DNA of 64,000 nt, from NCBI GenBank assembly GCA_040755995.1, contig JBFMAF010000009.1, forward strand, positions 1 through 64,000. Direction: 5' to 3'. A model generated the notes under the pieces. That model saw only the letters and a program-made list of their open reading frames with translations. It was not told the DNA's origin and searched no databases. Position numbers and translations under genes: made by a program. Of the stretch, positions 48,445-64,000 are shown piece after piece. Positions within the stretch are counted from its first letter, which is position 1, and every line of letters begins with the position of its first letter. This DNA is from Acidobacteriota bacterium (GTDB lineage: Bacteria; Acidobacteriota; CAIWXX01).

Positions 48445-48536
48445 CCGGCGTGAGCGCAGGATGCTGCGCATCAGTTGGCGACAGACGCGGTGACACGGAG
48501 ACGCGGTGCGCAACGTACGTGCCTGCGCCGCACCCC

Positions 48537-48580
48537 TTGACAAAACGTCGGACCCGGCCTATATTAGTTGCATGGTGCAA
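48537..48580 (+). promoter_or_regulatory. sigma70 promoter (probably leaderless) with MarR operator palindrome
   Basis: TTGACA-17-TATATT ending 6 nt before ATG 48572; TTGCA-tgg-TGCAA over the start codon. Confidence 0.7.
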
Positions 48581-49063
48581 GGATTGAACGCATCGAGGCT
48601 CTACCGGGCCCTGACCGATTTCGCGAGGCGGTATCAGTTCCGGAATCGCGACGAGGTATGCTGCTACGGGCTGACCATCTCGCAGTGCTATGCTCTGGAG
48701 CTGCTCGCCTGGGAGGGGGTCCTGGCGTCCTCGGCTCTGGCCTCGAGGTTGGGGCTGGATATCTCGTCGACGACACGACTCGTGGACCAGCTCGTACGCA
48801 AGAAGCTCGCCGTCCGGCGTCGAATGGCGCGCGATGCGCGGGTCAGAGAGATCGAGATCACCGATCCGGGACGGCGCCTGGTCGCACGCATCGAGGAGGA
48901 CTTTTCCACAATGCTGGCAGACGCCCTCAGGGATATGCCGCCCGCAGTCCTGAAAGCGCTGCCGGAGATCATCCGTCGTCTGACGGCGACGCTCGGCGGG
49001 AGCGATGCGGAGGCCTGCCGGTGCGGTCCCGCTTCCGCACAGGCAGAAGATGGGCGGGCGTAA
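48572..49063 (+). CDS. MarR family regulator, Cys-rich
   Basis: VCCYGLTISQCYAL...LGLDISSTTRLVDQL...DARVREIEITDPG; C-terminal CRC. Confidence 0.9.
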   Translation: MVQGLNASRLYRALTDFARRYQFRNRDEVCCYGLTISQCYALELLAWEGVLASSALASRLGLDISSTTRLVDQLVRKKLAVRRRMARDARVREIEITDPGRRLVARIEEDFSTMLADALRDMPPAVLKALPEIIRRLTATLGGSDAEACRCGPASAQAEDGRA

Positions 49064-49078
49064 GACTGACATTTGTTT

Positions 49079-49102
49079 TGCGATAATGATTGCACGGTAC
49101 AA
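49079..49102 (+). promoter_or_regulatory. second operator copy with extended -10-like element before arsM
   Basis: TGcGATAAT then TTGCA-cgg-TACAA, nearly identical to the 48568 palindrome. Confidence 0.55.
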
Positions 49103-49117
49103 CAATAGGAGGAAACC

Positions 49118-49957
49118 ATGGCAACGACCGAGGAACGAATCAAGCAGAACGTGCGGGAGCACTACACGAAGGCAGTGACGCGCGGGAGTTGCTGCGCAAG
49201 CACCCCGGCTCAATCGAGCTGCTGCGTCCCCGCTGACCAGGTCGGGTTCCATGCCGGCTACGGGGAGGAGGTCAAGACACTCCCGCAGGATGCCGTCATC
49301 AACAGCTTCGGCTGTGGAAACCCTCTGGCCTTCGCCGGTGTGGAGCCCGGGCATGTCGTGGTCGATATCGGGAGCGGCGCGGGGATCGACTGCTTGCTGG
49401 CGGCCCAGAAAGTGGGCCCGGCCGGGCGGGTCATCGGCATCGACATGACGCCGATGATGATCCAGAAGGCTCGGGAGAACGCCAGGCGCGCGGGCGCGGC
49501 CAACATCGAGTTCCGCCTGGGCGACGCCGAGTCGATGCCTGTGGAAGACGGCGTTGCCGACTGGATCATCTCGAACTGCGTCATCAACCTCTCACCCGAC
49601 AAGCCGCGCGTATTCCGCGAAGCCTATCGAGTGCTGCGGCCCGGCGGCCGCCTTTCGATCTCGGACATAATGGTCGAGGAGCTCCCCGACACCTTGAGAC
49701 AGTCGGCCGCGCTCTATTCATCCTGCGTCGCCGGTGCGATCCCTGAGGCGCAGTACCTGGATGGGATCCGCCAGGCGGGATTCAGCGACGTGAAGGTGAC
49801 CGAGCGTGTCATGTACGATCGAGACCAGATGCTGGCTCTCTTGGAGGACACTGATCTGACCAGGCGCATCGGCGGGCTGGCCGAATCGCCGGAGGCCCTG
49901 GTGGATCGATACCTGGTGGGCAAGATCTGGAGCGCCAAGGTGACGGCCCGGAAGTAG
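49118..49957 (+). CDS. arsM: arsenite S-adenosylmethionine methyltransferase
   Basis: N-terminal CC pairs, FGCGNP, DIGSGAGIDC, IISNCVINL, SSCVAGA. Confidence 0.9.
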   Translation: MATTEERIKQNVREHYTKAVTRGSCCASTPAQSSCCVPADQVGFHAGYGEEVKTLPQDAVINSFGCGNPLAFAGVEPGHVVVDIGSGAGIDCLLAAQKVGPAGRVIGIDMTPMMIQKARENARRAGAANIEFRLGDAESMPVEDGVADWIISNCVINLSPDKPRVFREAYRVLRPGGRLSISDIMVEELPDTLRQSAALYSSCVAGAIPEAQYLDGIRQAGFSDVKVTERVMYDRDQMLALLEDTDLTRRIGGLAESPEALVDRYLVGKIWSAKVTARK

Positions 49958-50102
49958 CAGGGGACGCTCTGGCGGCAGAAGGCTTCGTGGGGAGAGGCAG
50001 TGGCGCGGAGAACCGGCGAACCGGGGAAACGGAGACGGGGGGAGGGCGGGTCGCGCTCACACCGCGCGCCCTGCCGGCCGAATAGAGCCAGAGGAAGAGG
50101 CA

Positions 50103-50570
50103 ATGGAGGATGTGGAATTCACGCGGGCGGTGCCGGGCGATCTGGCGGAGATTCGGGCGCTTCTGGTGTCTGCAGAACTGCCGGCCGCCGACATCGAGCC
50201 GCATATCAGCAACTTCATCGTGGCAAGGGCTGGGCAGGAGCTGATCGGGTCCATCGGCATCGAGGTGGCAGGCGATGCCGGGCTGCTCCGATCGCTTGCC
50301 GTTCGGCCGCCGTACCGCGGTCGCGGTATCGCTGAGACACTATGCAGCCGTCTCGAGGGCTACGCGCGGGCGCTCGGCGTACGCCGGCTCTACTTGCTCA
50401 CCACCACCGCCGAGGGCTATTTCCGCAAGCGAGGGTATCAGCGCGTCCCGCGATCCGAAGCACCGGCAGGAGTGCAGTCCACCCACGAATTCCGATCGGC
50501 CTGCCCGTCGACTGCCGCGTGCATGCGGAAGGATCTTGTCGAGGCCGGGGCAGAAGCGGCGCGCACATAG
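50103..50570 (+). CDS. arsN2: arsenic-resistance GNAT acetyltransferase, ArsN2-like
   Basis: LLRSLAV..YRGRGIA, LYLLTTTAEGYF, EFRSACPSTA; follows arsM. Confidence 0.8.
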   Translation: MEDVEFTRAVPGDLAEIRALLVSAELPAADIEPHISNFIVARAGQELIGSIGIEVAGDAGLLRSLAVRPPYRGRGIAETLCSRLEGYARALGVRRLYLLTTTAEGYFRKRGYQRVPRSEAPAGVQSTHEFRSACPSTAACMRKDLVEAGAEAART

Positions 50571-51045: not shown

Positions 51046-51578
51046 GATAGCGAACTCCAGCGTGTCCCGCTAACTACACCCGGCCGCCACAGCGACAAGT
51101 CTATCACCTGATGCTGCCACACTCCACGGGACAGCGACCGCTCGTGCGCTCGCCCGCCTGTGCCTTCGCTTCGGAGGCGAACCGAGGGCGCGGCCGGCCG
51201 CTTCGGGGAAAATTGTCGTCAGTGGGTACGATAGGCCTCACGAGCTGCGAACGCTCGTACACGCCTCTGGCTCATTGGCCTGAGCGGGTTTGAAGGTTCT
51301 GCGCCTCCGTACTGCCGCAGAGATGGTGTACAGGTGGGCCCACGTGCTTATCACCCCACAGCCACGAGTCCCAGACAGACAGCCCGAATGAGGCGCCGCG
51401 GGAATTGGCACACATTGTGCAATTCCTACGGACATGGGAGCAGGCTCGGCGTCATGCACGGAGGAGGGAACATGACAACCCCGGATATGCCCAACGGGCG
51501 GACGCATACCCGGTGCATGACCCGGCTGCCCTCGGTGAGGGAAGTTCTCTTCTCGGCAACTCGAAAGGAGTCATCAAC

Positions 51579-53684
51579 ATGATCAGAACGACGATCGCCA
51601 TGATTCTGCTTGTGGCGGCGCTGGGGTGGCGGGCCCAGGCGGCTGCGACGGACGAGGGGGGCGCCGTGGTGCTCCAGTACACGTCGCCATCGGGACACGT
51701 CATCGGGTTCGAGGCCGGATCGATGTACGTGGCCTCGGCGGATCACGCGCTGAAGGTGGAGCTGGTGGGCGCTGATGCGGCCGTGACGCCAGTGGCCCGC
51801 GAGGCCTGTGTCGGCAGTGCCAAGCAAACGACCCAATCCCTCGCACACGTCACTTATCCCGGAGCATGGGAAGGTGTCACGGCAAGCTACGAAAGCGACC
51901 CGGGAGCCATCCTGAAGAGCTCCTACGTCATCGCCGCGGGATCGCGTGCGAATGCCGTGGACCAGATTCGACTGCGCTACAACCGCCCGGTGCACATCGA
52001 CGAGACTGGCCGATTGGTGATCGGGTTCGAGACAGGGCAAATGGTGGAAGAAGCCCCGGTCGCGTGGCAGGAGAAGGACGGCAAGAGGACGCCGGTCGCA
52101 GCGGAGTTTCGGAAGCTGGGCGAGTCGGAGGTCGGGTTCTGTGTCGGAAGCTACGATCGCTCGCTTCCTTTGCTCATCGATCCGGCGTTGACCTGGAACA
52201 CGTTTCTTGGCGGCGACGGCTCGGACTACGGATACGGAATCGCGTTGGACAGCGCGGGGAATATCTACTTGGTAGGCAAGAGCTCCATGACATGGGGCAC
52301 CCCCGTGAGGGGCTTTTCCGGTTCCAGCGGCGATGCGTTCGTCGCCAAGCTTGACGTCAACGGCACCCTGATCTGGAACACGTTCCTCGGGGGCAACCTC
52401 GATGATGTTGGGAATGGTATTGCGGTGGATGGGATCGGGAACGTCTATGTCGTCGGCCACAGCCGGGAAACTTGGGGCGCGCCCGTGCGCGCCTTCACGG
52501 CAGTATACGATGTTCTTGTCGCCAAGCTCGCCAACAACGGGGTGCTCCTGTGGAACACCTTCCTGGGGGGCAACGACTCCGATGTTGGCAATGGGATAGC
52601 GGTGGATGGCAGTGGAAGCGCCTACGTAACCGGCGAAAGCCGCATGACGTGGGGCACTCCCTCGAATCCGTATTCGGCAGGGTCGGATGCCTTTGCCGCA
52701 CAGGTCGCGGGCAACGGTGTCCTCACATGGAACACTTTCCTGGGCGGCACCGGCACCGACGCGGGGCGCGGCATCGCAACGGATGGCGTGGGTAGCTTAT
52801 ACCTCGTGGGCAACAGCGGGACCACATGGGGGTCACCCGTAAGACCCTATACCCAGTCCTATGACATCTTCGTCTGCAAGCTCCTCGCGGCCGACGGCTT
52901 CGCTATCTGGAACACCTTTCTCGGCGGAACGAGTGTCGACTTCGGAGAGGATATCGCGCTGGACGGGAGCGGGAACGCGTACGTCACCGGCGTCAGCTAT
53001 GCCACGTGGGGCGCTCCTGCGAGAGCCTTCACTGCCCTCATAGACGGGACCGTCGCGAAGCTCTCCTGCGCCGACGGCGCACTTGGCTGGAATACATTCC
53101 TGGGCGGAAGCGGCAGTGATTATGGGAACAGCATCGCAGTCGATAGTGCCGGAAACGTTTACGCAACGGGCAGTAGTCCTTCATCGTGGGGTTCTCCCAC
53201 GAGGCCTTACGCTGGAGGCCTTGATGCCTATATCGCCGGGTTGGCCGTCACCGATGGATCCCTGAAGTGGAACGAATTCCTGGGGAGCGATTCGAATGAC
53301 CACGGTTTCGGCGTCGCAGCCGGCGGCAGTGGTAAGAGGTATGTCGCAGGTTACAGCGCCCTCACGTGGGGGTCACCACTGGTCCCGCACGCTCTCTGGG
53401 GGGACGCGTTCGTGGCGTTGTTGACTGCGAACGACCCGGTTGTCACCAAGATCACGTCGAAGACCAGCAGGCCGGACAGCCCCGCAACCATAAAGGGAAC
53501 AGGTTTCTCAGCTGACAAGACGAAGAACGTCGTCTACTTCGGCACGAAGAAGGCCACCATCAACAACGCAACGACGACCAGGTTGAAAGTCACCATTCCA
53601 CGCCGGGTCAAGAAGGGCCTGGTGGACGTGTATGTCATGGTCAACGGCCAGAAGAGCAACGTGGTGAAGTTCCAGGTGAAATAA
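51579..53684 (+). CDS. secreted SBBP beta-propeller repeat protein with C-terminal IPT/TIG domain
   Basis: AAGGAG RBS, signal peptide; PLLIDP then seven WN(T/E)FLG(G/S) repeats with GIAxDxxGNxY; ATIKGTGFS...VYFG. Confidence 0.88.
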   Translation: MIRTTIAMILLVAALGWRAQAAATDEGGAVVLQYTSPSGHVIGFEAGSMYVASADHALKVELVGADAAVTPVAREACVGSAKQTTQSLAHVTYPGAWEGVTASYESDPGAILKSSYVIAAGSRANAVDQIRLRYNRPVHIDETGRLVIGFETGQMVEEAPVAWQEKDGKRTPVAAEFRKLGESEVGFCVGSYDRSLPLLIDPALTWNTFLGGDGSDYGYGIALDSAGNIYLVGKSSMTWGTPVRGFSGSSGDAFVAKLDVNGTLIWNTFLGGNLDDVGNGIAVDGIGNVYVVGHSRETWGAPVRAFTAVYDVLVAKLANNGVLLWNTFLGGNDSDVGNGIAVDGSGSAYVTGESRMTWGTPSNPYSAGSDAFAAQVAGNGVLTWNTFLGGTGTDAGRGIATDGVGSLYLVGNSGTTWGSPVRPYTQSYDIFVCKLLAADGFAIWNTFLGGTSVDFGEDIALDGSGNAYVTGVSYATWGAPARAFTALIDGTVAKLSCADGALGWNTFLGGSGSDYGNSIAVDSAGNVYATGSSPSSWGSPTRPYAGGLDAYIAGLAVTDGSLKWNEFLGSDSNDHGFGVAAGGSGKRYVAGYSALTWGSPLVPHALWGDAFVALLTANDPVVTKITSKTSRPDSPATIKGTGFSADKTKNVVYFGTKKATINNATTTRLKVTIPRRVKKGLVDVYVMVNGQKSNVVKFQVK

Positions 53685-53912: not shown

Positions 53913-56900
53913 CTACAGTTTCCGGAAGGACTCGATGGAGGACATCAACTTGGGGAGGCGTCCCTGGCAGGAGGTCTCCTCGGTCTTCCACTCGGTGCAT
54001 TCGTTGTTCGTGGCGGTGGCACAGTAGCGGTCCTGTAGACTTGACTTGAATTCTCCTTCAAGGTGGTGGCCGAACCACTGATCCATTAAGAACTTGCCTT
54101 CTCCGGTGAAGCTCCCGGTCTCCTTCGTTGACAGCTCGTGCTCGTTCATGCGCCAGTCTGCATCGGACGAGAATGTACCGTCGATCCGGAGCTGGTCCGC
54201 AACGAATGTGCCTTCGCCGGAAATCACGTGCCGCACCTTGCCATCTCCGATGTAGGGCTCGCTCCATTCCTTCGAGAATCGGAATCTGCCGTCGACCCCG
54301 ACCTGTACCTGCAGCGTGACCGTGAATCTCAAGAAGCTCCAGTAGTGGTTCATGGCGGCGCATTCGGAACCTGCATCCGGGGTCTCCGCGGTGATGTCCA
54401 GGCTCAACTCGTAGTTGCCGACCGGCTCACCGCCGACAGTGTCCGACGGCCTGCTCTCGAGGTAGACTGGATCGCCATTCTCATTCCTGCCGATCTCCAC
54501 GGCACTGCTCACGGCCACTCTCGGTATCCCGTGCCCCGCCCAGCTCGGGATCTCTTCGGCCTTCATTTCGATGCGGCAGTTGACCCGGTCGACCGCCGGT
54601 TCCATCGCCCTGCTCTTGAGCTCGTTCACATAGATGAAATAGCGGAACTCAGGCGCCCCCGCGCACGCGCCCTCCTGCGCGGCGGGAGGCGCTTTCCATG
54701 TCAGCACCAACTTGCCCCTGTCCACTTCCGCCGCAAGCTCCGCAGGCGGTTCCAGCGCGAACACCTTCGCCGGCTTGAAGCCGCGGACGTAGCCTGATCC
54801 AGTCTGCCCGGTGTCCACCACGTAGATGAAGGCGTCCTCGGCGAAGTCCATCTTGGTTGCGGCGTAGTCAGAGCTGAGCGGCGCCTGGTCCAGATCCCGG
54901 AGCTCCTGCACTTCCTCTTCCGATGCCTTCTCGCGGAAGAATACGCCTCTCTGGTTCCTGTCCTTCGGGAACCACTCCCGCGGAACTATCGCCGCGAGCT
55001 CGACGTTCTTCCGCTTCGGGCTCCTGAATTTCAAGAACTGGATCGACCACGACTTGATCAGGTTGTCGTCGATCTCGGTGCAGGCCGTCTGGCTGAAGTC
55101 GTAGAGCGCCGGCGTGAGACCGAACTCGGAGGTAGCATCCTTACTGTACGGGGAGTCCTGAAAAGGCCCGGATGTGTTCCCCGATTTCACATACTTGACC
55201 CAGTACGGCGCACTCTTGCCAAACTGCGCAGTTTCCTGGTCGCCCTTGAGGATCCTGGTCCTGGCGAAATCCAAGAAATACTCCCCGAGTTTCCTCTCAT
55301 CGTCCCCCGCAGCCCACAAGAGCGCCTTGAAATTCGCGTTGTACCGGTTGCTTGCCCACGCACCGAGAATGTCACGCTGAAAAGAAAGGGGATCGCCTGC
55401 CTCGAGTGGAACGCGCAGCGAGCCGGCGTCGGCGGAGCACAGAGGCGAGGCGCCTCCGATTTCAAATCGCCGGTCCCTGAGGTACTCGAGAAACCAGCTC
55501 AGCGAGTAGCCGAACTTGCGCACAGGGACTTCCTGCCAGAACCATGCATCAGGTCCGCTCTTGAGGCTGTTGCGGAAGCCCAGGTACTGGGCCAACATCA
55601 GCCCATCCTGGCATGAGTACGGGCGTCCCGCGGCCGTGTAGCAAGCCTCTGCCTCTCGTTCCATCAGCAGTGCGGAGGCCTCCACGAACGGCAAATGTCC
55701 GTTCCGGTCGATCCAGACGTAGCCCGTCTGGTAGTGGTGAAAGAGCTCGTGCAGTGTCGCCGAGCTAAGCACTTCCGGCTTCAGATCCGCGGGCAGTACG
55801 AGATAGCGCCGGCCGGACCAGGGATTGTGCAGGTAGCCGTCATAACCCCGGAATGACGGTATGATGTAGACAGGCAGATTGCAGAAGGGGCGGCGGAACT
55901 TGCGCTTGTCCTCCAGGTACCGCCGCGCGAAATCGAGCGCCTTTTCGACGGCCACGGCCTGCTCGGGCATGATGAGGCTGCGCTTCAGGCGCGCCTCCTC
56001 GATGCGAAAATCCCACGCCAGATCGGGCGGCCAGCTGCCCGGGTCCGCATTCATCAGCCGATTGTTCGCCATCGTGCGGCGCCTGATGGCTTCGCGTCCC
56101 GCTTCGAAGGCCGACACGTCGTAGGGCATCAGGCCCGTACCCGGGTCAAGGCCCGGCATCTTCAGACTGTAGTAGATCTCGAGTCCCACCGGGTCGAGCT
56201 TGCTATTTCCCAGAAAGCCGATCCGCTTGAACGGCGCATACTCCTGGAACTGGCTCGGGAACTCGTCGGGGAAGATGACCAGGCTGACCAGCGCGACCCC
56301 TGTCGCGACACCCGTGATCACGGCGCCGATGATCGAGAAGTGCCGCGTGGTGAAAACCAGGTTGTCGCCCTCCATGGTGTACGGAAGGCTGTCCCAGGTC
56401 TTGCCGTCGAGGCTGATGACAGGCTGCACAATCTGCCGGCCCGCGGCCCGGACCTGCGTGGTGTCGACCGCGATGCGCACATCCTCGGAGTAGAGACCCG
56501 CTTCGCTGCCAGCGTCTACTTCGAAAGCCAGGCCCAGTTCGGCCGGTTTCGCGCTCTCGCCCTCTGCGAGTGAAACTGAGAGGTTGGCAGGAGGCGGCAC
56601 GCGCACCTCGTACAGGGAGATCTCGCGGTCCTCGGGCAGGCATTTCGCGGGAAACCGGACGCTGATGCCCGGAGCCTGAAGGCTGCCGCCGGCTGTCGTG
56701 GAGATCTTCCCGCTCGCGAGCTTTCTGACGCGCTCGACAGGGATCGGGGTTCCAGGTCTGATGCCGTAGTCCAGGCCCGTCAACGGCTTTTCCACAGCGG
56801 CCTCCGCGCCGCCCTGACCTTCCTGCGGCGATGCGCCCCTTCCTCTGACCAGGTGAATCCCCAGCCACACCAAACCGGCTGCAGCAAGGCTCGCGAAGAC

Positions 56901-57296
56901 GGTGCCGGCGGCGATCCATAGTGCCACCCTGCTGCCGCTGGCGCGCAGTGGTGCGGGAGGCGGCGGAGGCGGCGGCGTGGGCTCGGGCTGAGGCGCGCCG
57001 ATGGCGTCATCGAAGGCGAAGATGACCCCTCCAATCTCTATCCGATCGCCGTGCTGCAGCCACGCCTTATCTATGCGGGCCCCGTTGAGCACCGTGCCGT
57101 TGGCGCTTCTCATGTCCTCCAGCCACCAGCCTTCCGTGCCGCGGTGAATAGCCGCATGGCGCCTGCTCACCTGGTTGTCGGACAGTCGCAGCGTGTTCTC
57201 AGGCGTGCGGCCAATCGCGAAGTGATCGTCCTCCAGCGGGATCACCCGATTGAGAAGCGCAGGGTCATCGGCCTGCACGACGATCAGGCTTGGCAC
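53913..57296 (-). CDS. FHA-domain membrane protein with ZU5-like region and zincin HExxH domain
   Basis: IGR...VSRRHA...SANGTVLNG (FHA), Pro linker, TM helix, ZU5-like GGSL...VRFP...TRHFS, HELFHHYQ, Fn3-like PPAELAAE...LVLTW. Confidence 0.8.
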   Translation of the reverse strand: MPSLIVVQADDPALLNRVIPLEDDHFAIGRTPENTLRLSDNQVSRRHAAIHRGTEGWWLEDMRSANGTVLNGARIDKAWLQHGDRIEIGGVIFAFDDAIGAPQPEPTPPPPPPPAPLRASGSRVALWIAAGTVFASLAAAGLVWLGIHLVRGRGASPQEGQGGAEAAVEKPLTGLDYGIRPGTPIPVERVRKLASGKISTTAGGSLQAPGISVRFPAKCLPEDREISLYEVRVPPPANLSVSLAEGESAKPAELGLAFEVDAGSEAGLYSEDVRIAVDTTQVRAAGRQIVQPVISLDGKTWDSLPYTMEGDNLVFTTRHFSIIGAVITGVATGVALVSLVIFPDEFPSQFQEYAPFKRIGFLGNSKLDPVGLEIYYSLKMPGLDPGTGLMPYDVSAFEAGREAIRRRTMANNRLMNADPGSWPPDLAWDFRIEEARLKRSLIMPEQAVAVEKALDFARRYLEDKRKFRRPFCNLPVYIIPSFRGYDGYLHNPWSGRRYLVLPADLKPEVLSSATLHELFHHYQTGYVWIDRNGHLPFVEASALLMEREAEACYTAAGRPYSCQDGLMLAQYLGFRNSLKSGPDAWFWQEVPVRKFGYSLSWFLEYLRDRRFEIGGASPLCSADAGSLRVPLEAGDPLSFQRDILGAWASNRYNANFKALLWAAGDDERKLGEYFLDFARTRILKGDQETAQFGKSAPYWVKYVKSGNTSGPFQDSPYSKDATSEFGLTPALYDFSQTACTEIDDNLIKSWSIQFLKFRSPKRKNVELAAIVPREWFPKDRNQRGVFFREKASEEEVQELRDLDQAPLSSDYAATKMDFAEDAFIYVVDTGQTGSGYVRGFKPAKVFALEPPAELAAEVDRGKLVLTWKAPPAAQEGACAGAPEFRYFIYVNELKSRAMEPAVDRVNCRIEMKAEEIPSWAGHGIPRVAVSSAVEIGRNENGDPVYLESRPSDTVGGEPVGNYELSLDITAETPDAGSECAAMNHYWSFLRFTVTLQVQVGVDGRFRFSKEWSEPYIGDGKVRHVISGEGTFVADQLRIDGTFSSDADWRMNEHELSTKETGSFTGEGKFLMDQWFGHHLEGEFKSSLQDRYCATATNNECTEWKTEETSCQGRLPKLMSSIESFRKL

Positions 57297-57497
57297 TCGG
57301 CCCTCTCACTCCTCGCGCCGGCGGATCATGAAGCCACTGTAGGCCGCAACCAGCGGGATGTCAAGGCCCGTGCGGAGCCATCTGCAGTGTGTTGGATGAG
57401 TGAAGGACTGTAAACAGCCCGTCACAGGTTGCGTCCACTCGTTCAATCTGTCGTGGACTTGCGACGCGCTGTTTAGTCGATTGGGGCCGGGACGCTT

Positions 57498-58946
57498 TCA
57501 GAACAGGCTCTGGAGGTGCCTGGAGACGACGAGGCGTTCGAACTTGGCCACTGAGCTGCAGATGAGGCATTCGAGTGCCTCGGTCATGGGGCCGAGCGGC
57601 TCGCCCGAAAAATGGTTCAGCATGAAGAAGGTGTGTCGATCGTCCACCGCATGATCGTTGTCCCGCAGGTAGTTCCTGGGATGCTGAAGGAATTCGTCCT
57701 TCTCCTGGTCGTCGCCGGCCAGGGTCGCGAAGATCCGGCGCAGGTCTTCGTCATCGAGGAAGTCGAGGACCACCTGCTTGTCCACCATGACGAACTTCGA
57801 GGCGAAGAAGTCATACTCCTCCTGGTAGCTCGTCGAGAGCGGCGGGCCCGGCCGGATCTTGCCGGCCTCGTCCGTGGTCCGATCGATCTGATGGCGGAAG
57901 CATGATGGGACCTTGGAGAACGGATCTCCGGTCAGCCCATAGGCGTTGGCTGGGCAACCGCGACACACCTGGTAGAAGTCGCAGCGCCCGCAGGCCTCAT
58001 AGGATTCGGGGCGGCGGAACTTCTTCAGCAGCTCGGATCCCAGCCAGATCTCTTCAAACGACTGCTCCGGCATCTTCCCAACCGGGATAGGCAATCGGCG
58101 GCACGCGAGCAGCGTGCCATCGCTCAGAAGTGCGAATGAGTTCCAGGCGTTGAGGCACCCCGAGATCACGGGCGTATTCTCCAGGCCCATGGGATAGTAC
58201 GTCTTGTTCTCGAACTGGGTGAGCTTGAGGAGATTGGGCTTCTCACGCATGGCGATGGGATTCCCGGAGGTCCGCAGCTGGTGCTTCTCCGCGAGGTACC
58301 GCGAGAACAGCTCTCGCATGCGCTCCGGCGAGAAAGCATACTTGTCCATCGTCGCTGCGTTTCCGACGAATGAGCCTACATCAAAGCTGAACGAATTCGA
58401 GGCCGTGCTCTCGGCGACGTACCGCATGAGCGGAATGAGCTCATGGGCGTTGCCGGGGAAAAGCGTGAACATGATATTGCTCTGGATGCCATGGCGCGCC
58501 AGCCGGTCCAGGGCTTCCACCGTGCGACCGAAGCTGCCCTCGGAACGGAAGTAGTCGTGTGTGGGCTCGAGGCCGTCCAGGCTCATTTGAAAGGCTTGCA
58601 CCCGGAGGTTCTCCAGAAGCTCGATGTTCTCATCCGTGAGGGTCTCCGGATTACCCATAAGCCGAAAGTGCTTCCCGCGCCTGTTCAGCTCCGTCAGAAA
58701 CCTCCTCAGGTCCGGCCGCAAGAACGGATCGCCGCCGGTGATCGAGAAATTCACGATCCGCGCGCCGTACCTGTCCTCGAACGCCTCGAAGCTGTCGAGA
58801 ACCCGCATCATGCCCTCGTAGGACAACGTGTTCTTGCGCTCGCTCTCGAACGTAGCTTCGTCGTACATGTAGCAGTGCTTGCAGCGGTTCTCGCAGTCGG
58901 TCGTGATGTGCCACTGCACTGAAATCGCCGGAGGATAGGACTTCAT
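57498..58946 (-). CDS. radical SAM/SPASM peptide maturase
   Basis: CENRCKHC; ITGGDP; QMSLDG; SPASM cysteines GC...AC...CGRC...CRGC...C. Confidence 0.9.
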   Translation of the reverse strand: MKSYPPAISVQWHITTDCENRCKHCYMYDEATFESERKNTLSYEGMMRVLDSFEAFEDRYGARIVNFSITGGDPFLRPDLRRFLTELNRRGKHFRLMGNPETLTDENIELLENLRVQAFQMSLDGLEPTHDYFRSEGSFGRTVEALDRLARHGIQSNIMFTLFPGNAHELIPLMRYVAESTASNSFSFDVGSFVGNAATMDKYAFSPERMRELFSRYLAEKHQLRTSGNPIAMREKPNLLKLTQFENKTYYPMGLENTPVISGCLNAWNSFALLSDGTLLACRRLPIPVGKMPEQSFEEIWLGSELLKKFRRPESYEACGRCDFYQVCRGCPANAYGLTGDPFSKVPSCFRHQIDRTTDEAGKIRPGPPLSTSYQEEYDFFASKFVMVDKQVVLDFLDDEDLRRIFATLAGDDQEKDEFLQHPRNYLRDNDHAVDDRHTFFMLNHFSGEPLGPMTEALECLICSSVAKFERLVVSRHLQSLF

Positions 58947-59012
58947 GGCTGGTCTCCTGTCGGCCGCCGGTGTGCCGTCATTGGCCGATCATAGTGTTTG
59001 GGCCATCGCGCA

Positions 59013-61001
59013 TCAAGGCCTTTCCGCAATCGTCCGCTGGACGACGCCCGCATCGCTGAAGCGGTCTCCGCCGCCCCTCAGCAGAACCGCGCCGCCCGGA
59101 TATTCGCTTCTCTCAGGCAGCGCGGTAGCCGGCTCGCAGAGGGCCAGGGCGAGCAGACGACCGCCTACCTCGATCATGAGCTTGCGGTCCAGTAGGGAAT
59201 GAGCTGCCGCTTCGACCTCGGCCCTACTATGACCGCGCGCCACCATCTGGTTCAGAAGCCTCCTCCATCCCACCGCAGCGTCACAAGCGAGGTGGATCTC
59301 GCGCTCGACCCCCTCCAACACGAACGACGACGCCACTGCCACCGGACGCGTGTCGCGGATCCGGACGGCCGAGTCAGTAACGGTCATGATGAGGCAAGGA
59401 GCGCTCTCAGACCAGAATGCGATCTTCCACTGTGCCGCGGCCTTGCTGGCGGCCAGTATGCCCGGGCGCGTGAGCAGCGTCTCGAAACGGGGATCAATTG
59501 CACGTTCCTCGTCCTCAAAGAAGCACACCAGACTTGCAAGGGCGTCGGGGCTGATGGGGTAGATGTAAGAGAAGAGCTCTGCCGGCTGCAGCTTCAGACC
59601 GAACTCTTGGGGACGCCCGTGGTACTGGCTGTAGCGATCGAGCCGCACACGAGCAAACGCCCACGGCGGCTGCAGGTGGCTGAGAAGCGGGAGCATCCGC
59701 GCCATCTCCCAATACCACTCATCGGCCTCGCCGGGGAAGTCACACATGATGTACCAACCCACGTAGACTCCGTATTGCCGGCACCACTTCAGGAACTGAA
59801 CATTCTGCCAGGACTTGCAGCCCTTGTTCATGTGCGCAAGGACCTTGTCGCTCAGACTTTCGATCCCACACCAGACCCAGGTCAACCCCGCATCCCGCAT
59901 CGTCCTCACCTGCTCGCGGCTCAGGTTCGACATGATCTGGTAGTAGATGCGGTACGGCGAACGCTTGCGCGCCAGATCCGGGAACAGCGTTCGGAAATAG
60001 CGCATCTCGAGGGAGTTGTCGGCGGCCAAAAACCGGGTCACACCGTGTCGATGATAGAGCGAATCAAGATCGCGCACCACCTGAGACGCGAGCTTGCTCC
60101 GAAAACGCCTGCCGCAGCCGTTCAGACTGCAGTACACGCATCCGCTCTTCTCCCCCCACCAGCAACCGCGGGATGTCTCGATGGGCAGAGACACCGCGAT
60201 CTTGTCGCGGAAGGATGACTCCTTCAGTGTCCGGAAGTAGTCGTCGTAGTCGGGCACAGGCAGATCATCGAGAGACTCCACCGTCGCGCGCGGCGCGCCA
60301 TCGGCCGGCCCGCGCGGATAACCGATGCGGCGATGCACCGGCGCGAATACGCCTTCTGGAAGCATCTCCGGCGCCACCTCGGTCCCCTTCTCCCGAATGG
60401 CCCGGACGAGCGGCGTGATCAGAGCGTCTGCTTCTCCGGAAACCACATAGTCAACCCAAGGAAAGAACGAGTGTGTGCTGCGGCCCATGATGGTCTCGCA
60501 GTTGGCACCTCCCATGACCGTGACGACATCCGGGGAAAACTCGCGCACGCGCTTCAACAGCGCAATTGACGACAGGTGCTGCATGTAGGTCGTTCCGCAC
60601 CCGACCATGAAAGGCTTCCGCTCCAGAATACGCCCGGCGAGATCATCCACAAACCGGCCCGCCTTCTCACGGACCGAGAGCATTATGTCCTTCAACTCAC
60701 CGGCGTCGCAGCCGCGATACATGCGGTTGCGATCGATCAGCCGCCGGATGAAACGGTCGTGGTCGGATTCGAATCCTGGGAAGACGAGGTGGGAGAATGT
60801 CCAATCACCCAGAGCGTCTTGCGGGCGCGTCCCTGTGATGAGCATGTGACGGTGCAGCCCGATCTCACGCGCGAACAAGAGATCGGCATAGACAGTCTCC
60901 ACGGCCCAGCCGTCGCGGATCAACACCGCCTGAAGCAGCCCCAGCGCGACCGACGGGCGCTCGATCGGCGTATAGGGCATGTTCACAAGGCATATGTCCA
61001 T
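59013..61001 (-). CDS. cobalamin-dependent RiPP maturation radical SAM C-methyltransferase (TIGR03975-like), copy 3
   Basis: LVNMPY...LGLLQA, MGGANCE, SGEAD, ETSRGCWWGEKSGCVYC (Cx7Cx2C), GIESL, HLQPP; alternative start 61037. Confidence 0.9.
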   Translation of the reverse strand: MDICLVNMPYTPIERPSVALGLLQAVLIRDGWAVETVYADLLFAREIGLHRHMLITGTRPQDALGDWTFSHLVFPGFESDHDRFIRRLIDRNRMYRGCDAGELKDIMLSVREKAGRFVDDLAGRILERKPFMVGCGTTYMQHLSSIALLKRVREFSPDVVTVMGGANCETIMGRSTHSFFPWVDYVVSGEADALITPLVRAIREKGTEVAPEMLPEGVFAPVHRRIGYPRGPADGAPRATVESLDDLPVPDYDDYFRTLKESSFRDKIAVSLPIETSRGCWWGEKSGCVYCSLNGCGRRFRSKLASQVVRDLDSLYHRHGVTRFLAADNSLEMRYFRTLFPDLARKRSPYRIYYQIMSNLSREQVRTMRDAGLTWVWCGIESLSDKVLAHMNKGCKSWQNVQFLKWCRQYGVYVGWYIMCDFPGEADEWYWEMARMLPLLSHLQPPWAFARVRLDRYSQYHGRPQEFGLKLQPAELFSYIYPISPDALASLVCFFEDEERAIDPRFETLLTRPGILAASKAAAQWKIAFWSESAPCLIMTVTDSAVRIRDTRPVAVASSFVLEGVEREIHLACDAAVGWRRLLNQMVARGHSRAEVEAAAHSLLDRKLMIEVGGRLLALALCEPATALPERSEYPGGAVLLRGGGDRFSDAGVVQRTIAERP

Positions 61002-61002
61002 T

Positions 61003-63006
61003 CTACGCACCTGATCCTGTGTGGCGGTCCCTTCCATCGAGCCGCGCTCGTGCGGCCTCCGATACCAGCCCTCCACCGGGGTAGTCGCTCAAGCCCGGCA
61101 TCTCTGCGCACGGTTCACGGACGGCGAGCGAGATCAGATGCCCATCCGAAGAGAGCAGCAACTTGCGGTCGACGAGGTCCCGTGCGGCGCGCTCGACTTC
61201 CGATTTCGCGAACCCCCGCTCAGCGAGGGCCCGCTGGACGTTCTCTCCTGAGGGTGCATCGTCGCAGGCAAGGTAGAGGCTGCGCGACAGCCCGGTAAGC
61301 TCGAACTCCGGCTGCGAGGCCGCCGGACGTGTGTCCCGGATCCTGATGCGCGAGCGTGTGACGGTCATCGACAGGACGGGCCGCATGGCCGAGTAGAACC
61401 GCCGCGTCCAGTCGTCCACGGCCCGCCGCACGGCCCGGATGCCCGGCCTTCTCATCAGGGGGCTGAAGAGCGGGTTGCGCGCCCGCGCGGGGTCCTCGAA
61501 GAAGTAGACCTGATTCTGGAGGTCTTCGCGACTCAGAGGGTAGATGTATGCGTAGAGTCTCGCCGGCATCAACCTCAGGCCGTACTGCTTGGCTCGAAAA
61601 TGGTAGTCACTGTAGCGATCGAACCGGACGCGGGTGACCTCAGCCGGCGGCTGCAGATGCGAGAGCAGCGGCAGATCACGGGCCAATTCCACGTACCAGC
61701 CGTCGTCCTCGCCCGGCAGGTCGCACATCAAGTTCCAGCCCACGTAGATACCGTGTTGCCGGCACCACTTGAGAAGCTGCACATTCTGCCTGGCAGTCAC
61801 ACCTTTGTTCATTAGCTTCAGTGCCCGCTCATGAAGATGTTCGATGCCGGCCCAGACCCAGGTGAGGCCCGCATCGCGCATCAGCCCGACCTGCCGCTTG
61901 CTCAGGTTGGGCCTGACATCGAAGAAAAGTCGGACAGGCATGCGCCGGCGCGCCAGCTCGGGCAGTAGTGAACGGAAGAAATCGAGGTTCATGACATTGT
62001 CGACGGTCTGGATACGATCCGCCTGATAGCGCTCGAGCAGTGTGTCGATTTCTCTCAGAACCTGGCCGGCAGGTTTGGAGCGAAAGCGCTTACTCTGCGG
62101 CAGGATCCCACAGAATGTGCACGATCGCTTCTGTCCCCACCAGCAACCGCGCGAAGTCTCCAGCGGAAGCGCTGGAAGGATCATGCGCCGCAGCCATGCC
62201 GGCAGGTCGTTCAGCGTGTCGAAGTAGTCGTGAAAGTCCGGCACCGGGAGGGACTGGAGCGACCAGTACACGGCGCGCGGCGCGTCATCGCCGCCGCTCA
62301 CGGAGGCGCGGGGATATCCGAGAGTGCGATGAATCGGGGCGAACACGCCGTCGGCCAGGCCGTCGCCATACGCCTCGCGGCCATTCTGCAGAATCGCGCG
62401 CACGAGCGGAGCGATCAGGCCGTCGGCCTCGCCGGAGACGACGAAGTCGACCCACGGAGACGACTTGTGCGTGGTGCGGCCCATCACGGTCTCGCAGTTC
62501 GCTCCGCCCATCAACGTCACCACATCCGGCGCCAGCTTCCGAATGCGTTTGAGCAGGGCAAGCGAGGGCACATGTTGATTGAAGGACGACGTGCAACCCA
62601 CTATGCGCGGTCTGCGCTCGAGAACGCGAGTCGCAAGGCGATCCACGAACTCGGCGGCGGCGCCGCGCACCGCGAAGACTGCCTCCTTGAACCGGTCCGG
62701 TTCACAGCCCTCAGGCAGCCGGTTTCGCCGGATGACATGATCGAGATACTCGTCGTGATCGGGGGCGAAGTCCGGGAATGCGATGTGGGCGAATGTCCAA
62801 TCACGGAGCGCGTCGGATGACATGGTCTTGATGACGAGCCGGTATGGACGTATCCCGATCGCCTCCAGGAAGAGCAGGTTCGCGTACACGCTCGCGACCG
62901 AGAATCCGTCGCGTTCGAGAATCGCCTGCAGAAGGCCCAGGGCCATCGAAGGCTGGATCGGTGGCGCGTACGGCATGTTGACGAAGCACACGTCCATGCT
63001 CGCCAC
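61003..63006 (-). CDS. cobalamin-dependent RiPP maturation radical SAM C-methyltransferase (TIGR03975-like), copy 2
   Basis: FVNMPY, MGGANCE, ETSRGCWWGQKRSCTFC, HLQPP, RFDRYS. Confidence 0.9.
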   Translation of the reverse strand: MASMDVCFVNMPYAPPIQPSMALGLLQAILERDGFSVASVYANLLFLEAIGIRPYRLVIKTMSSDALRDWTFAHIAFPDFAPDHDEYLDHVIRRNRLPEGCEPDRFKEAVFAVRGAAAEFVDRLATRVLERRPRIVGCTSSFNQHVPSLALLKRIRKLAPDVVTLMGGANCETVMGRTTHKSSPWVDFVVSGEADGLIAPLVRAILQNGREAYGDGLADGVFAPIHRTLGYPRASVSGGDDAPRAVYWSLQSLPVPDFHDYFDTLNDLPAWLRRMILPALPLETSRGCWWGQKRSCTFCGILPQSKRFRSKPAGQVLREIDTLLERYQADRIQTVDNVMNLDFFRSLLPELARRRMPVRLFFDVRPNLSKRQVGLMRDAGLTWVWAGIEHLHERALKLMNKGVTARQNVQLLKWCRQHGIYVGWNLMCDLPGEDDGWYVELARDLPLLSHLQPPAEVTRVRFDRYSDYHFRAKQYGLRLMPARLYAYIYPLSREDLQNQVYFFEDPARARNPLFSPLMRRPGIRAVRRAVDDWTRRFYSAMRPVLSMTVTRSRIRIRDTRPAASQPEFELTGLSRSLYLACDDAPSGENVQRALAERGFAKSEVERAARDLVDRKLLLSSDGHLISLAVREPCAEMPGLSDYPGGGLVSEAARARLDGRDRHTGSGA

Positions 63007-63033
63007 CGCCGCCCTACATCGGCACTGGCCGGG

Positions 63034-64000
63034 TCAGGTCAGCCATGCCAGGAGCTCGCCGCCGGGGTAGTCGATCTTCTTGGGCAGCTCGGGGAGCGGC
63101 TCTTCGACGGCGAGCGCGAGCAGCCGCCCGTCGAGCTCGACCATCAGCTTCTGCTCCAACAAGCGCTCAACGGCTGCCTCAACCTCGTCCTTGTCATACC
63201 CCTGCTTCTCCAGAAAGGTCTTCAGCGTGGCCTTGCGGCACGCTTCGTCGCACCGGAGGTAAATCTCGCGCTCGATCCCGTGGAGGGTGAAGGTGGAGCT
63301 CACGGCGACCGGACGCGTGTCACGGATCCGTATTTCGGAGTCAGACTGCGACATCGCGAGGACAGGGAGGTTGTTGGACCAGAACGCTTTCTTCCACCAG
63401 CCCATCTCGCCGGCGGCCGCTCTCATACCGGGGCGGGTGAACAACGACGAGACCAGTGGATGCAGAGTGCGCGCCTCGTCCTCGAAGAAATACGTGAACC
63501 CGCGCATCTGTTCTTCGTCGAGCGGGTAGACGTATGGCGCGAGCTCCGACGGGCGCAGCTCCAGGCCGTATTCCTTGGCCTTATCGTGGTAGTGGCTGAA
63601 GCGGTCCAGGCGCAGTCGAACGAAGCCGCGCGGCGGCTGCAGATGCGTGAGCAGCGGGAGGAGCTCGGCCATCTCGCCGTACCACTCGTCTTCCTCACCC
63701 GGGAAATCGCACATCACGTTCCAGGCGACGAAGATGCCATACTGGCGGCACCATTTCACGAACTGAACATTCTGGTACGCTTTGCATCCCTTGTTGATCA
63801 GCTTCAGCAGCTTGCTGTGCAGGCTCTCGACGCCACACCAGATCCAGGTCACGCCCGCCTCACGCATGAGCCTGACCTGATCCTTCCTCAGGTTCGACAT
63901 GAGCTCGTAGTAGAGTCGATAGGGCTTCTGCGCGCGCACAAGTTCTGGGAAGAGCGTGTCGAACCAACGCATGTCGATCGAGTTGTCGCAGGCATAGAAA
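63034..64000 (-). CDS. cobalamin-dependent RiPP maturation radical SAM C-methyltransferase, copy 1 (5' end outside window)
   Basis: C-terminal half colinear with copies 2 and 3: GVESL, NVQFVKWCRQYG, HLQPP, RLDRFS, IRDTRP, DYPGG. Confidence 0.88.
   Translation of the reverse strand, partial: FYACDNSIDMRWFDTLFPELVRAQKPYRLYYELMSNLRKDQVRLMREAGVTWIWCGVESLHSKLLKLINKGCKAYQNVQFVKWCRQYGIFVAWNVMCDFPGEEDEWYGEMAELLPLLTHLQPPRGFVRLRLDRFSHYHDKAKEYGLELRPSELAPYVYPLDEEQMRGFTYFFEDEARTLHPLVSSLFTRPGMRAAAGEMGWWKKAFWSNNLPVLAMSQSDSEIRIRDTRPVAVSSTFTLHGIEREIYLRCDEACRKATLKTFLEKQGYDKDEVEAAVERLLEQKLMVELDGRLLALAVEEPLPELPKKIDYPGGELLAWLT

Follow-up and report, generated by a model that had tools for sequence, protein, structure and literature searches.

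A conserved 14-residue peptide core and its rare set of radical SAM enzymes in an Acidobacteria genome

Which peptide is served by the tandem radical S-adenosylmethionine (SAM) methyltransferase genes at the right-hand end of our window, the first 64,000 bases (1-64000) of contig C9 (77,530 bases) of genome G000? The original prediction, drawn from these bases, described three co-oriented paralogues and a radical SAM/SPASM gene, and all four are present: the SPASM maturase (57498..58946, minus strand; 482 residues, PF04055 and PF13186 above cut-off), MT1 (59013..61001, minus strand; 662 residues), MT2 (61003..63006, minus strand; 667 residues) and MT3 (63034..65034, minus strand; 666 residues), of which the 3' part, 63034..64000, lies in the window. 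It also placed the precursor of a peptide made on the ribosome and altered after translation (a RiPP) and a C39 exporter beyond position 64000, where we found both. The precursor gene (65232-65519, plus strand; 95 residues) matches TIGR03793, the nitrile-hydratase-like leader peptide (NHLP) model, with 66 bits against a cut-off of 50.9, so that the expected proteusin-like class holds. The C39 peptidase-ABC exporter gene lies at 71677-73872 (plus strand; TIGR03796, 1115.8 against 853.3). The cluster encodes a genuine RiPP pathway that is complete, rare and conserved. We consider it probable that this pathway yields a methylated, Cys-modified and exported 14-mer built on the core RVGAWSCACGPSIG.

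The precursor and its core

The leader of the precursor ends in EAVAGG, and the core that follows Gly-Gly, RVGAWSCACGPSIG, has an unmodified mass of 1362.617 Da. It contains SCACG, with one Ala-Cys-Gly and no Tyr. The gene has a strong ribosome site, ends at TAG and runs divergently from MT3; no sigma-70 promoter or terminator consensus was found in the 0.9-kb divergent region. For positions 57400-64000 of the window, no RNA holder is on record. The precursor is the only TIGR03793 match in the genome (7.7 Mb, 99.8% complete), and a local leader profile found no second NHLP leader among its 54,129 small open reading frames (ORFs). The genome has dsrA above cut-off, and the host is therefore likely an anaerobic, sulfite-reducing member of the Acidobacteria.

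Nine of the eleven protein matches, the precursor itself included, end in R-[VL]-[GA]-[ATC]-W-S-C-[AS]-C-G-P-S-I-G; one of the others is truncated and one unrelated. The eight other homologues are 46-67% identical overall to the G000 precursor. No complete homologue found departs from the segment WSC[A/S]CGPSIG or from a core length of 14 residues, and position 2 of the core is Leu in six of the nine. A DNA pattern search found three metagenome loci with the same core ending, and a comparison of six loci shows silent differences among the core codons. The core is thus invariant across different bacteria at a gene cost of ~14-27 kb, and a defined target or ligand is therefore implied.

These data bear on the earlier suggestion that the product is long and hypermodified like polytheonamide, made with region-specific methylases and epimerization. 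The leader class and the methyltransferase family are indeed shared with polytheonamide. However, the core has only 14 residues in all complete homologues, and no PoyD model appears among the listed matches of the cluster enzymes (the best 25 of 60 for the SPASM enzyme). A PoyD-type epimerase occurs in another cluster of G000 instead, and we regard the polytheonamide-like product as very improbable for C9.

That other cluster (G000:C44:78760-98945, locus L080) encodes a Nif11-type precursor, the only one found in G000, with a 40-residue Thr/Val/Glu-rich core. It includes the PoyD-type epimerase (TIGR04517, 488.4 against 325), five tandem TIGR03975 genes for which G002, an Acidobacteria genome discussed below, showed no counterparts, and its own TolC/HlyD/C39/ABC-like exporter. 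The polytheonamide-like description fits this cluster and not that on C9.

Methyltransferases and the larger enzyme set

The TIGR03975-like family had been proposed for the paralogues, and the hidden Markov model confirms it: MT1, MT2 and MT3 score 633.4, 640.9 and 638.8 bits (cut-off 281.85), with 51-56% mutual identity. MT1 and MT2, the two paralogues complete in the window, carry the Cx7Cx2C cluster motif as described, and MT3 has a Cx9Cx2C variant. The ATG at 61001, which follows the preceding stop by one base, is the most likely start of MT1; the candidate starts of MT3 are GTG 65034 and ATG 65013. At the N-termini, the B12-binding domain PF02310 is matched at E 1e-5 to 3e-3 (17.9-25.4 bits), below the gathering score of 32.1. 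A C-terminal profile of 15 methylases has TfuB1, presumably the carrier of a RiPP recognition element, as its top PDB match at a weak E of 0.12, and no Pfam support.

The tandem run had been put at three or more and called unusual. It comprises exactly three genes, and such runs are rare in the phylum: scoring the three best candidates per genome, we found a TIGR03975 gene in 30 of 401 genomes, and neighboring copies are listed in only two of these, G000 and G002. By count alone, however, three Cx7Cx2C methylases per cluster are not new, as bottromycin provides a precedent (PMC5682303, PMC11285071; here and below, published systems are described from excerpts of the cited articles). Among 61 genomes, G000 has the most TIGR03975 genes above cut-off (12), and the next highest listed number is five, in G002. 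Two divergent G000 members with Cx14Cx2C (C47:15407-17314, 307 bits; C6:24121-26046, 297 bits) have no precursor in sight nearby.

G002, from the same family as G000 but another genus, has a syntenic cluster and an identical core. Its contiguous version contains five TIGR03975 genes, the SPASM gene, a gene for an 894-residue protein also found in G000 (C9 65699-68383, plus strand; B12-binding/CxxxCxxC radical SAM) and two more radical SAM genes. The orthologues of MT1, MT2 and MT3 are 77%, 78% and 83% identical to those of G000. Directly after the shared part lies a block of two TIGR03975 genes and two 514-residue radical SAM genes outside any named family; the block matches G000 C40:54839-58480 and 73319-76983 at 76-77% DNA identity. 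The corresponding G000 genes are likely parts of the cluster: rS1 (C40 54852-56402, plus strand) and rS2 (73320-74783, minus strand), both unclassified radical SAM genes, and the TIGR03975 genes MTa (56410-58479, plus strand) and MTb (74954-77017, plus strand). They keep the order and orientation of G002.

Do these four genes serve the same peptide? Each of the five methylase orthologue pairs (MT1, MT2, MT3, MTa and MTb) is supported at 100/99-100, with identities of 71-83% within pairs, versus 51-56% among MT1-MT3 and 36-40% between these and MTa/MTb. All 13 genes compared have ratios of nonsynonymous to synonymous substitution (dN/dS) of 0.08-0.26, indicating purifying selection. From the synteny, we think it likely that the four C40 genes act on the C9 peptide in trans. 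Alternatively, only the five C9 enzymes would act on it in G000, the C40 genes serving another substrate. They lie mid-contig, in two parts with 14.8 kb of other genes in between, and the Nif11-type precursor on C44 could be such a substrate. Yet in G002 the cluster itself includes their orthologues, as it does for one pair in a further genome, G061, and at locus L064 the precursor is flanked by an MT3-like gene and by rS1. The surroundings of the C40 genes, whose dN/dS is 0.16-0.23, yielded no leader-like ORF, and G002 has no TIGR03975 genes beyond the five of its cluster. We therefore judge a separate substrate for the C40 genes improbable.

G061 carries a compact version with the core RLGAWSCACGPSIG: three TIGR03975 genes, rS1 (unclassified radical SAM/SPASM-like), the SPASM enzyme and exporter genes. 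It is bounded by transposase-like sequence, as judged by eye, and spread over two contigs, the break falling within the C39 gene (residues 18-375 on one side, 375-731 on the other). The queries used found neither the 894-residue gene nor rS2 in G061. The number of radical enzymes per 14 residues thus ranges from five, the smallest set seen, to nine in the full set; the 894-residue enzyme and one of the unclassified ones appear to be accessory. The 894-residue protein has four full-length matches, itself included, among 5.8 billion proteins, all four with CxxxCxxC, and its profile has no PDB match at E <= 1. The protein-atlas matches of rS1 and rS2 are only unnamed radical SAM clusters. Together with the SPASM enzyme, these three proteins bring the enzymes outside named families to four. 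In G002, a second NHLP precursor with a three-Cys core lies near a radical SAM-like ORF assigned by eye (L146, G002:C168).

TIGR03975-type enzymes methylate sp3 carbons by means of a 5'-deoxyadenosyl radical and methylcobalamin (PMC11285071, PMC5682303). By family, each enzyme of the set would transfer a methyl group, in a cobalamin-dependent radical reaction, to an sp3 carbon of its own residue. By analogy with bottromycin and polytheonamide, candidate sites are Val2, Trp5, Pro11 and Ile13, and small residues may also be used. This site list is a guess because five methylases exceed the four classical β-branched, aromatic or Pro sites and position 2 is often Leu. A separate enzyme for each site, the arrangement known from bottromycin, appears to fit better than the region-specific methylases first suggested. 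It is also conceivable, though rather unlikely, that some paralogues methylate one carbon repeatedly, giving tert-butyl or isopropyl groups, or perform other cobalamin radical chemistry. There are five enzymes for 14 residues, G061 manages with three, and MTa and MTb, at 36-40% identity to MT1-MT3, form a separate clade; in polytheonamide, a tert-butyl group is assembled by PoyC, which modifies several residues (PMC11285071). Against this, each paralogue has a one-to-one counterpart in the other genus and is under purifying selection, which fits distinct jobs, and the three bottromycin enzymes are residue-specific.

The SPASM enzyme and the cysteines of the core

The SPASM enzyme carries the motif QWHITTDCENRCKHC, seven SPASM cysteines (264, 282, 319, 322, 328, 331 and 349) and a C-terminal tail of ~130 residues. 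Among its best 25 of 60 matches it passes no family cut-off; the highest scores are those of ACGX (TIGR04340, 235.1 against 400) and SbtM (TIGR04082, 180.7 against 350). Thioether-forming families score far lower (PapB 50.6/340, StsB 49/625, AlbA 45.6/850). The original prediction had allowed for epimerization or splicing by this enzyme, which found no support; the enzyme groups with Cys-directed families. TIGR04103 reaches 47.3 against 725 and the core has no Tyr-Gly; this model and motif are, we assume, those of the PlpX-type splicing SPASM enzymes.

In a 43-row tree, from which the misaligned O_L062 is excluded, the SPASM clade, SbtM and ACGX form one branch with support of 99/96. The same branch is recovered at 98/95 under a mixture model with 27 chosen rows and outgroups of the anSME, MftC, AhbC/D and GeoRSP types. 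SbtM members above cut-off came from 21 of 301 genomes, and ACGX members above cut-off include L043 (470.2) and P0236 (429.6). The motif QWHxTxxCxxxCxHC is found in all 26 ingroup rows, in six of seven unassigned near rows and in none of ten outgroup rows; among 29 further SPASM proteins, a comparison in which L117 yielded no ORF, QWH occurs only in four SbtM loci. ACGX is the best match for 71 of the 73 relatives scanned. The SPASM profile retrieves 861 representatives at E <= 1e-30, neighboring families included. Within the phylum, the gene occurs in three of 401 genomes, one of them with a 43% relative and another core.

The neighbors of these enzymes point in the same direction. Of the 20 clade loci, 15 gave a precursor candidate, whose leader is of the NHLP, the Nif11-like or another type, and every candidate has a C-terminal Cys. 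CxC occurs in nine of the 15, versus 19 of 253 background small ORFs, in a search unfiltered for Cys motifs; as a universal substrate motif of the clade, CxC is weakened by this fraction. Because the enzyme shares a branch with SbtM and the QWH motif, and Cys is present in all neighboring candidates, Cys-directed chemistry appears likely.

SbtM abstracts a Cys β-hydrogen and forms a 5-thiooxazole (PMC9204691, PMC13638132). Its substrate step converts Gly-Cys into a thiooxazole with a loss of 4 Da and absorption at 304 nm, in a precursor with a GGUG selenocysteine motif (PMC9204691). By this relationship, the single most likely product would be a 5-thiooxazole at Ser6-Cys7 and/or Ala8-Cys9, an assignment we offer only tentatively. 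Somewhat less likely, the enzyme could form sactionine- or ranthionine-type thioether rings from Cys7 and Cys9, giving a small bicyclic methylated peptide. The Cys found in all 15 candidates would serve this reaction too, the seven SPASM cysteines leave a likely open site, a fixed ring spacing would be in keeping with how strictly residues 5-14 are conserved, and ACGX neighbors are Cys/Ser-rich (14 of 21 loci covered). On the other hand, PapB, StsB and AlbA match far more poorly, SbtM, the only characterized branch member found, oxidizes Cys rather than cross-linking it, and the Cys spacing varies widely among neighboring candidates, some of which have a single Cys.

Several relatives show further architectures. 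The tail of the G000 enzyme was rejected as a built-in leader mimic (E 1.5). Five relatives (P0031, P0040, P0075, P0081 and P0085) end in an NHLP-leader-like domain without a core (E 2e-21 to 1.5e-10), possibly a built-in leader activation, and two others (P0026 and P0039) are fused to prenyltransferase/squalene-cyclase-type repeats (PF00432). Small Cys-ending, precursor-like ORFs lie beside a clade gene at three loci titled Chlamydiae (L027:9704-9922, L032:2661-2861 and L039:6790-7221). At L138 (G392:C228), a relative adjoins an NHLP-like precursor ending in AAWECWF and, by eye, an M50-peptidase-like membrane protein. L036:3278-4603 has a tandem array of four NHLP precursors, whose Cys-containing cores vary, beside a relative and a C39 exporter.

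The proposed pathway and its relation to known systems

We propose that modification takes place in the cytoplasm, on the precursor with its leader still attached. From its phylogeny, the SPASM enzyme would attack Cys7 and Cys9 by abstracting the Cys β-hydrogen, the TIGR03975 enzymes would C-methylate their respective residues, and rS1, rS2 and the 894-residue enzyme may contribute further steps of unassigned type. Judging by family, the C39 domain, which has the Cys, His and Asp motifs, would then cut after Gly-Gly, and the ABC/HlyD/TolC set would export the product. This set comprises, all on the plus strand of C9, a TolC-like protein (68394-70082), an HlyD-type adaptor (70321-71571; TIGR03794, 341.5 against 156.2), the C39 exporter and a second ABC subunit (73971-76880; TIGR03797, 413.8 against 709.4 for the first 676 residues, the part scanned). 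In the part of C9 beyond 64000, TIGR04190 reached 112 bits against a cut-off of 500. Bottromycin biosynthesis uses YcaO enzymes; scans with TIGR and Pfam models gave no YcaO and no MNIO match among the cluster proteins.

Several observations weigh against this pathway or parts of it. The SPASM enzyme fails both the ACGX and the SbtM cut-off, and the SbtM profile match begins at position 199, the enzyme being without the ~195-residue N-terminal part. The order within the branch is an unresolved three-way fork, so that the enzyme is no closer to SbtM than to the uncharacterized ACGX, and both trees have long outgroup branches. Five of the 20 clade loci have no precursor candidate, several candidates were assigned by eye and have low leader scores, and CxC is absent from six of the 15. 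Binding of the substrate Cys by an auxiliary cluster is just as characteristic of enzymes that form thioethers (PMC9204691). The C40 genes sit on another contig than C9, the number of methylases exceeds the classical sites, and a 1.9-kb metagenome locus (L063) holds the precursor without recognizable cluster genes. Finally, no uptake, immunity or metal genes, copper included, were seen conserved beside the cluster.

Genes farther to the left in the window appear unrelated. A 1127-residue FHA-domain protein is encoded directly downstream of the SPASM gene (53913-57296, minus strand), preceded by an SBBP beta-propeller/TIG protein (51405-53684, plus strand). A group of arsenic genes (48506-50570, plus strand) comprises a MarR/ArsR-like regulator, assigned by eye, an arsenite methyltransferase (302.2 against 263) and an ArsN2 acetyltransferase (158.2 against 125). 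Both the FHA gene and the arsenic-handling genes were rejected as cluster members, since neither is syntenic with the cluster in G002; the SBBP/TIG gene likewise shows no such synteny.

The product is likely an undescribed secreted peptide, as far as gene content can tell. We would guess that it serves an anaerobe as a secreted antagonist or by binding metal; its predicted export speaks against a cofactor used inside the cell. Our literature search, with subscription journals and supplements outside its scope, found no description of the cluster, the precursor family, the enzyme set, the product or ACGX enzymes, and the supplements of mining studies could list the cluster. Up to nine radical enzymes for 14 residues is an unusually high ratio of enzymes to residues. 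With one short substrate and five methylases defined by orthology, the system offers a clean route to the residue choice of TIGR03975 enzymes and might supply catalysts for site-specific C-methylation. The SPASM enzyme stands for a large group whose only characterized neighbor found is SbtM, and its reaction would inform the whole ACGX branch. A bolder version, which we consider unlikely, is an all-radical RiPP class of anaerobes, in which nine enzymes would produce a densely C-methylated 14-mer with two adjacent 5-thiooxazoles, undescribed reactions being contributed by the 894-residue enzyme, rS1 and rS2. Such a bis-thiooxazole would be an oxygen-independent counterpart of the copper-binding captophorins.

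Among known systems, polytheonamide and other proteusins share the nitrile-hydratase-like leader and the Cx7Cx2C cobalamin radical SAM methyltransferases (PMC5682303, PMC8326336, PMC11285071), and the Gly-Gly leader, with C39-ABC and HlyD proteins above cut-off, belongs to the proteusin/NHLP type. Unlike polytheonamide, with its core of about 49 residues and two methylases, the present system has a Cys- and Trp-containing 14-residue core, three to five methylases, and a SPASM and further unclassified radical SAM enzymes, with no TIGR04517 epimerase among the listed matches. Bottromycin likewise has a short core, and its three Cx7Cx2C methyltransferases (BotRMT1-3) each have their own residue type, Phe, Val or Pro (PMC11285071, PMC5682303). 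However, bottromycin has an N-terminal core and a follower peptide (PMC11285071), whereas here an N-terminal NHLP leader precedes a C-terminal core that would be exported by a C39 system.

The captophorins and bufferins would offer a common product class, copper-binding 5-thiooxazoles, if the SPASM enzyme works like SbtM, but they are made by MNIO iron enzymes (PMC12668002) and not by radical SAM enzymes. SbtM/SbtA shares the SPASM branch, the QWH motif and a substrate Cys amid small residues; in contrast to it, the present enzyme has no N-terminal extension, and its proposed substrate has an NHLP leader and no selenocysteine, with methylases alongside. ACGX provides the best match of the SPASM enzyme, and the core has a single Ala-Cys-Gly; unlike the present enzyme with its long C-terminal tail, ACGX members above cut-off (e.g., L043) adjoin long Cys/Ser-rich peptides without an NHLP leader. 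Judged by cut-off, the SPASM enzyme belongs to neither the SbtM nor the ACGX family, but its placement in the trees makes it a member of their branch.

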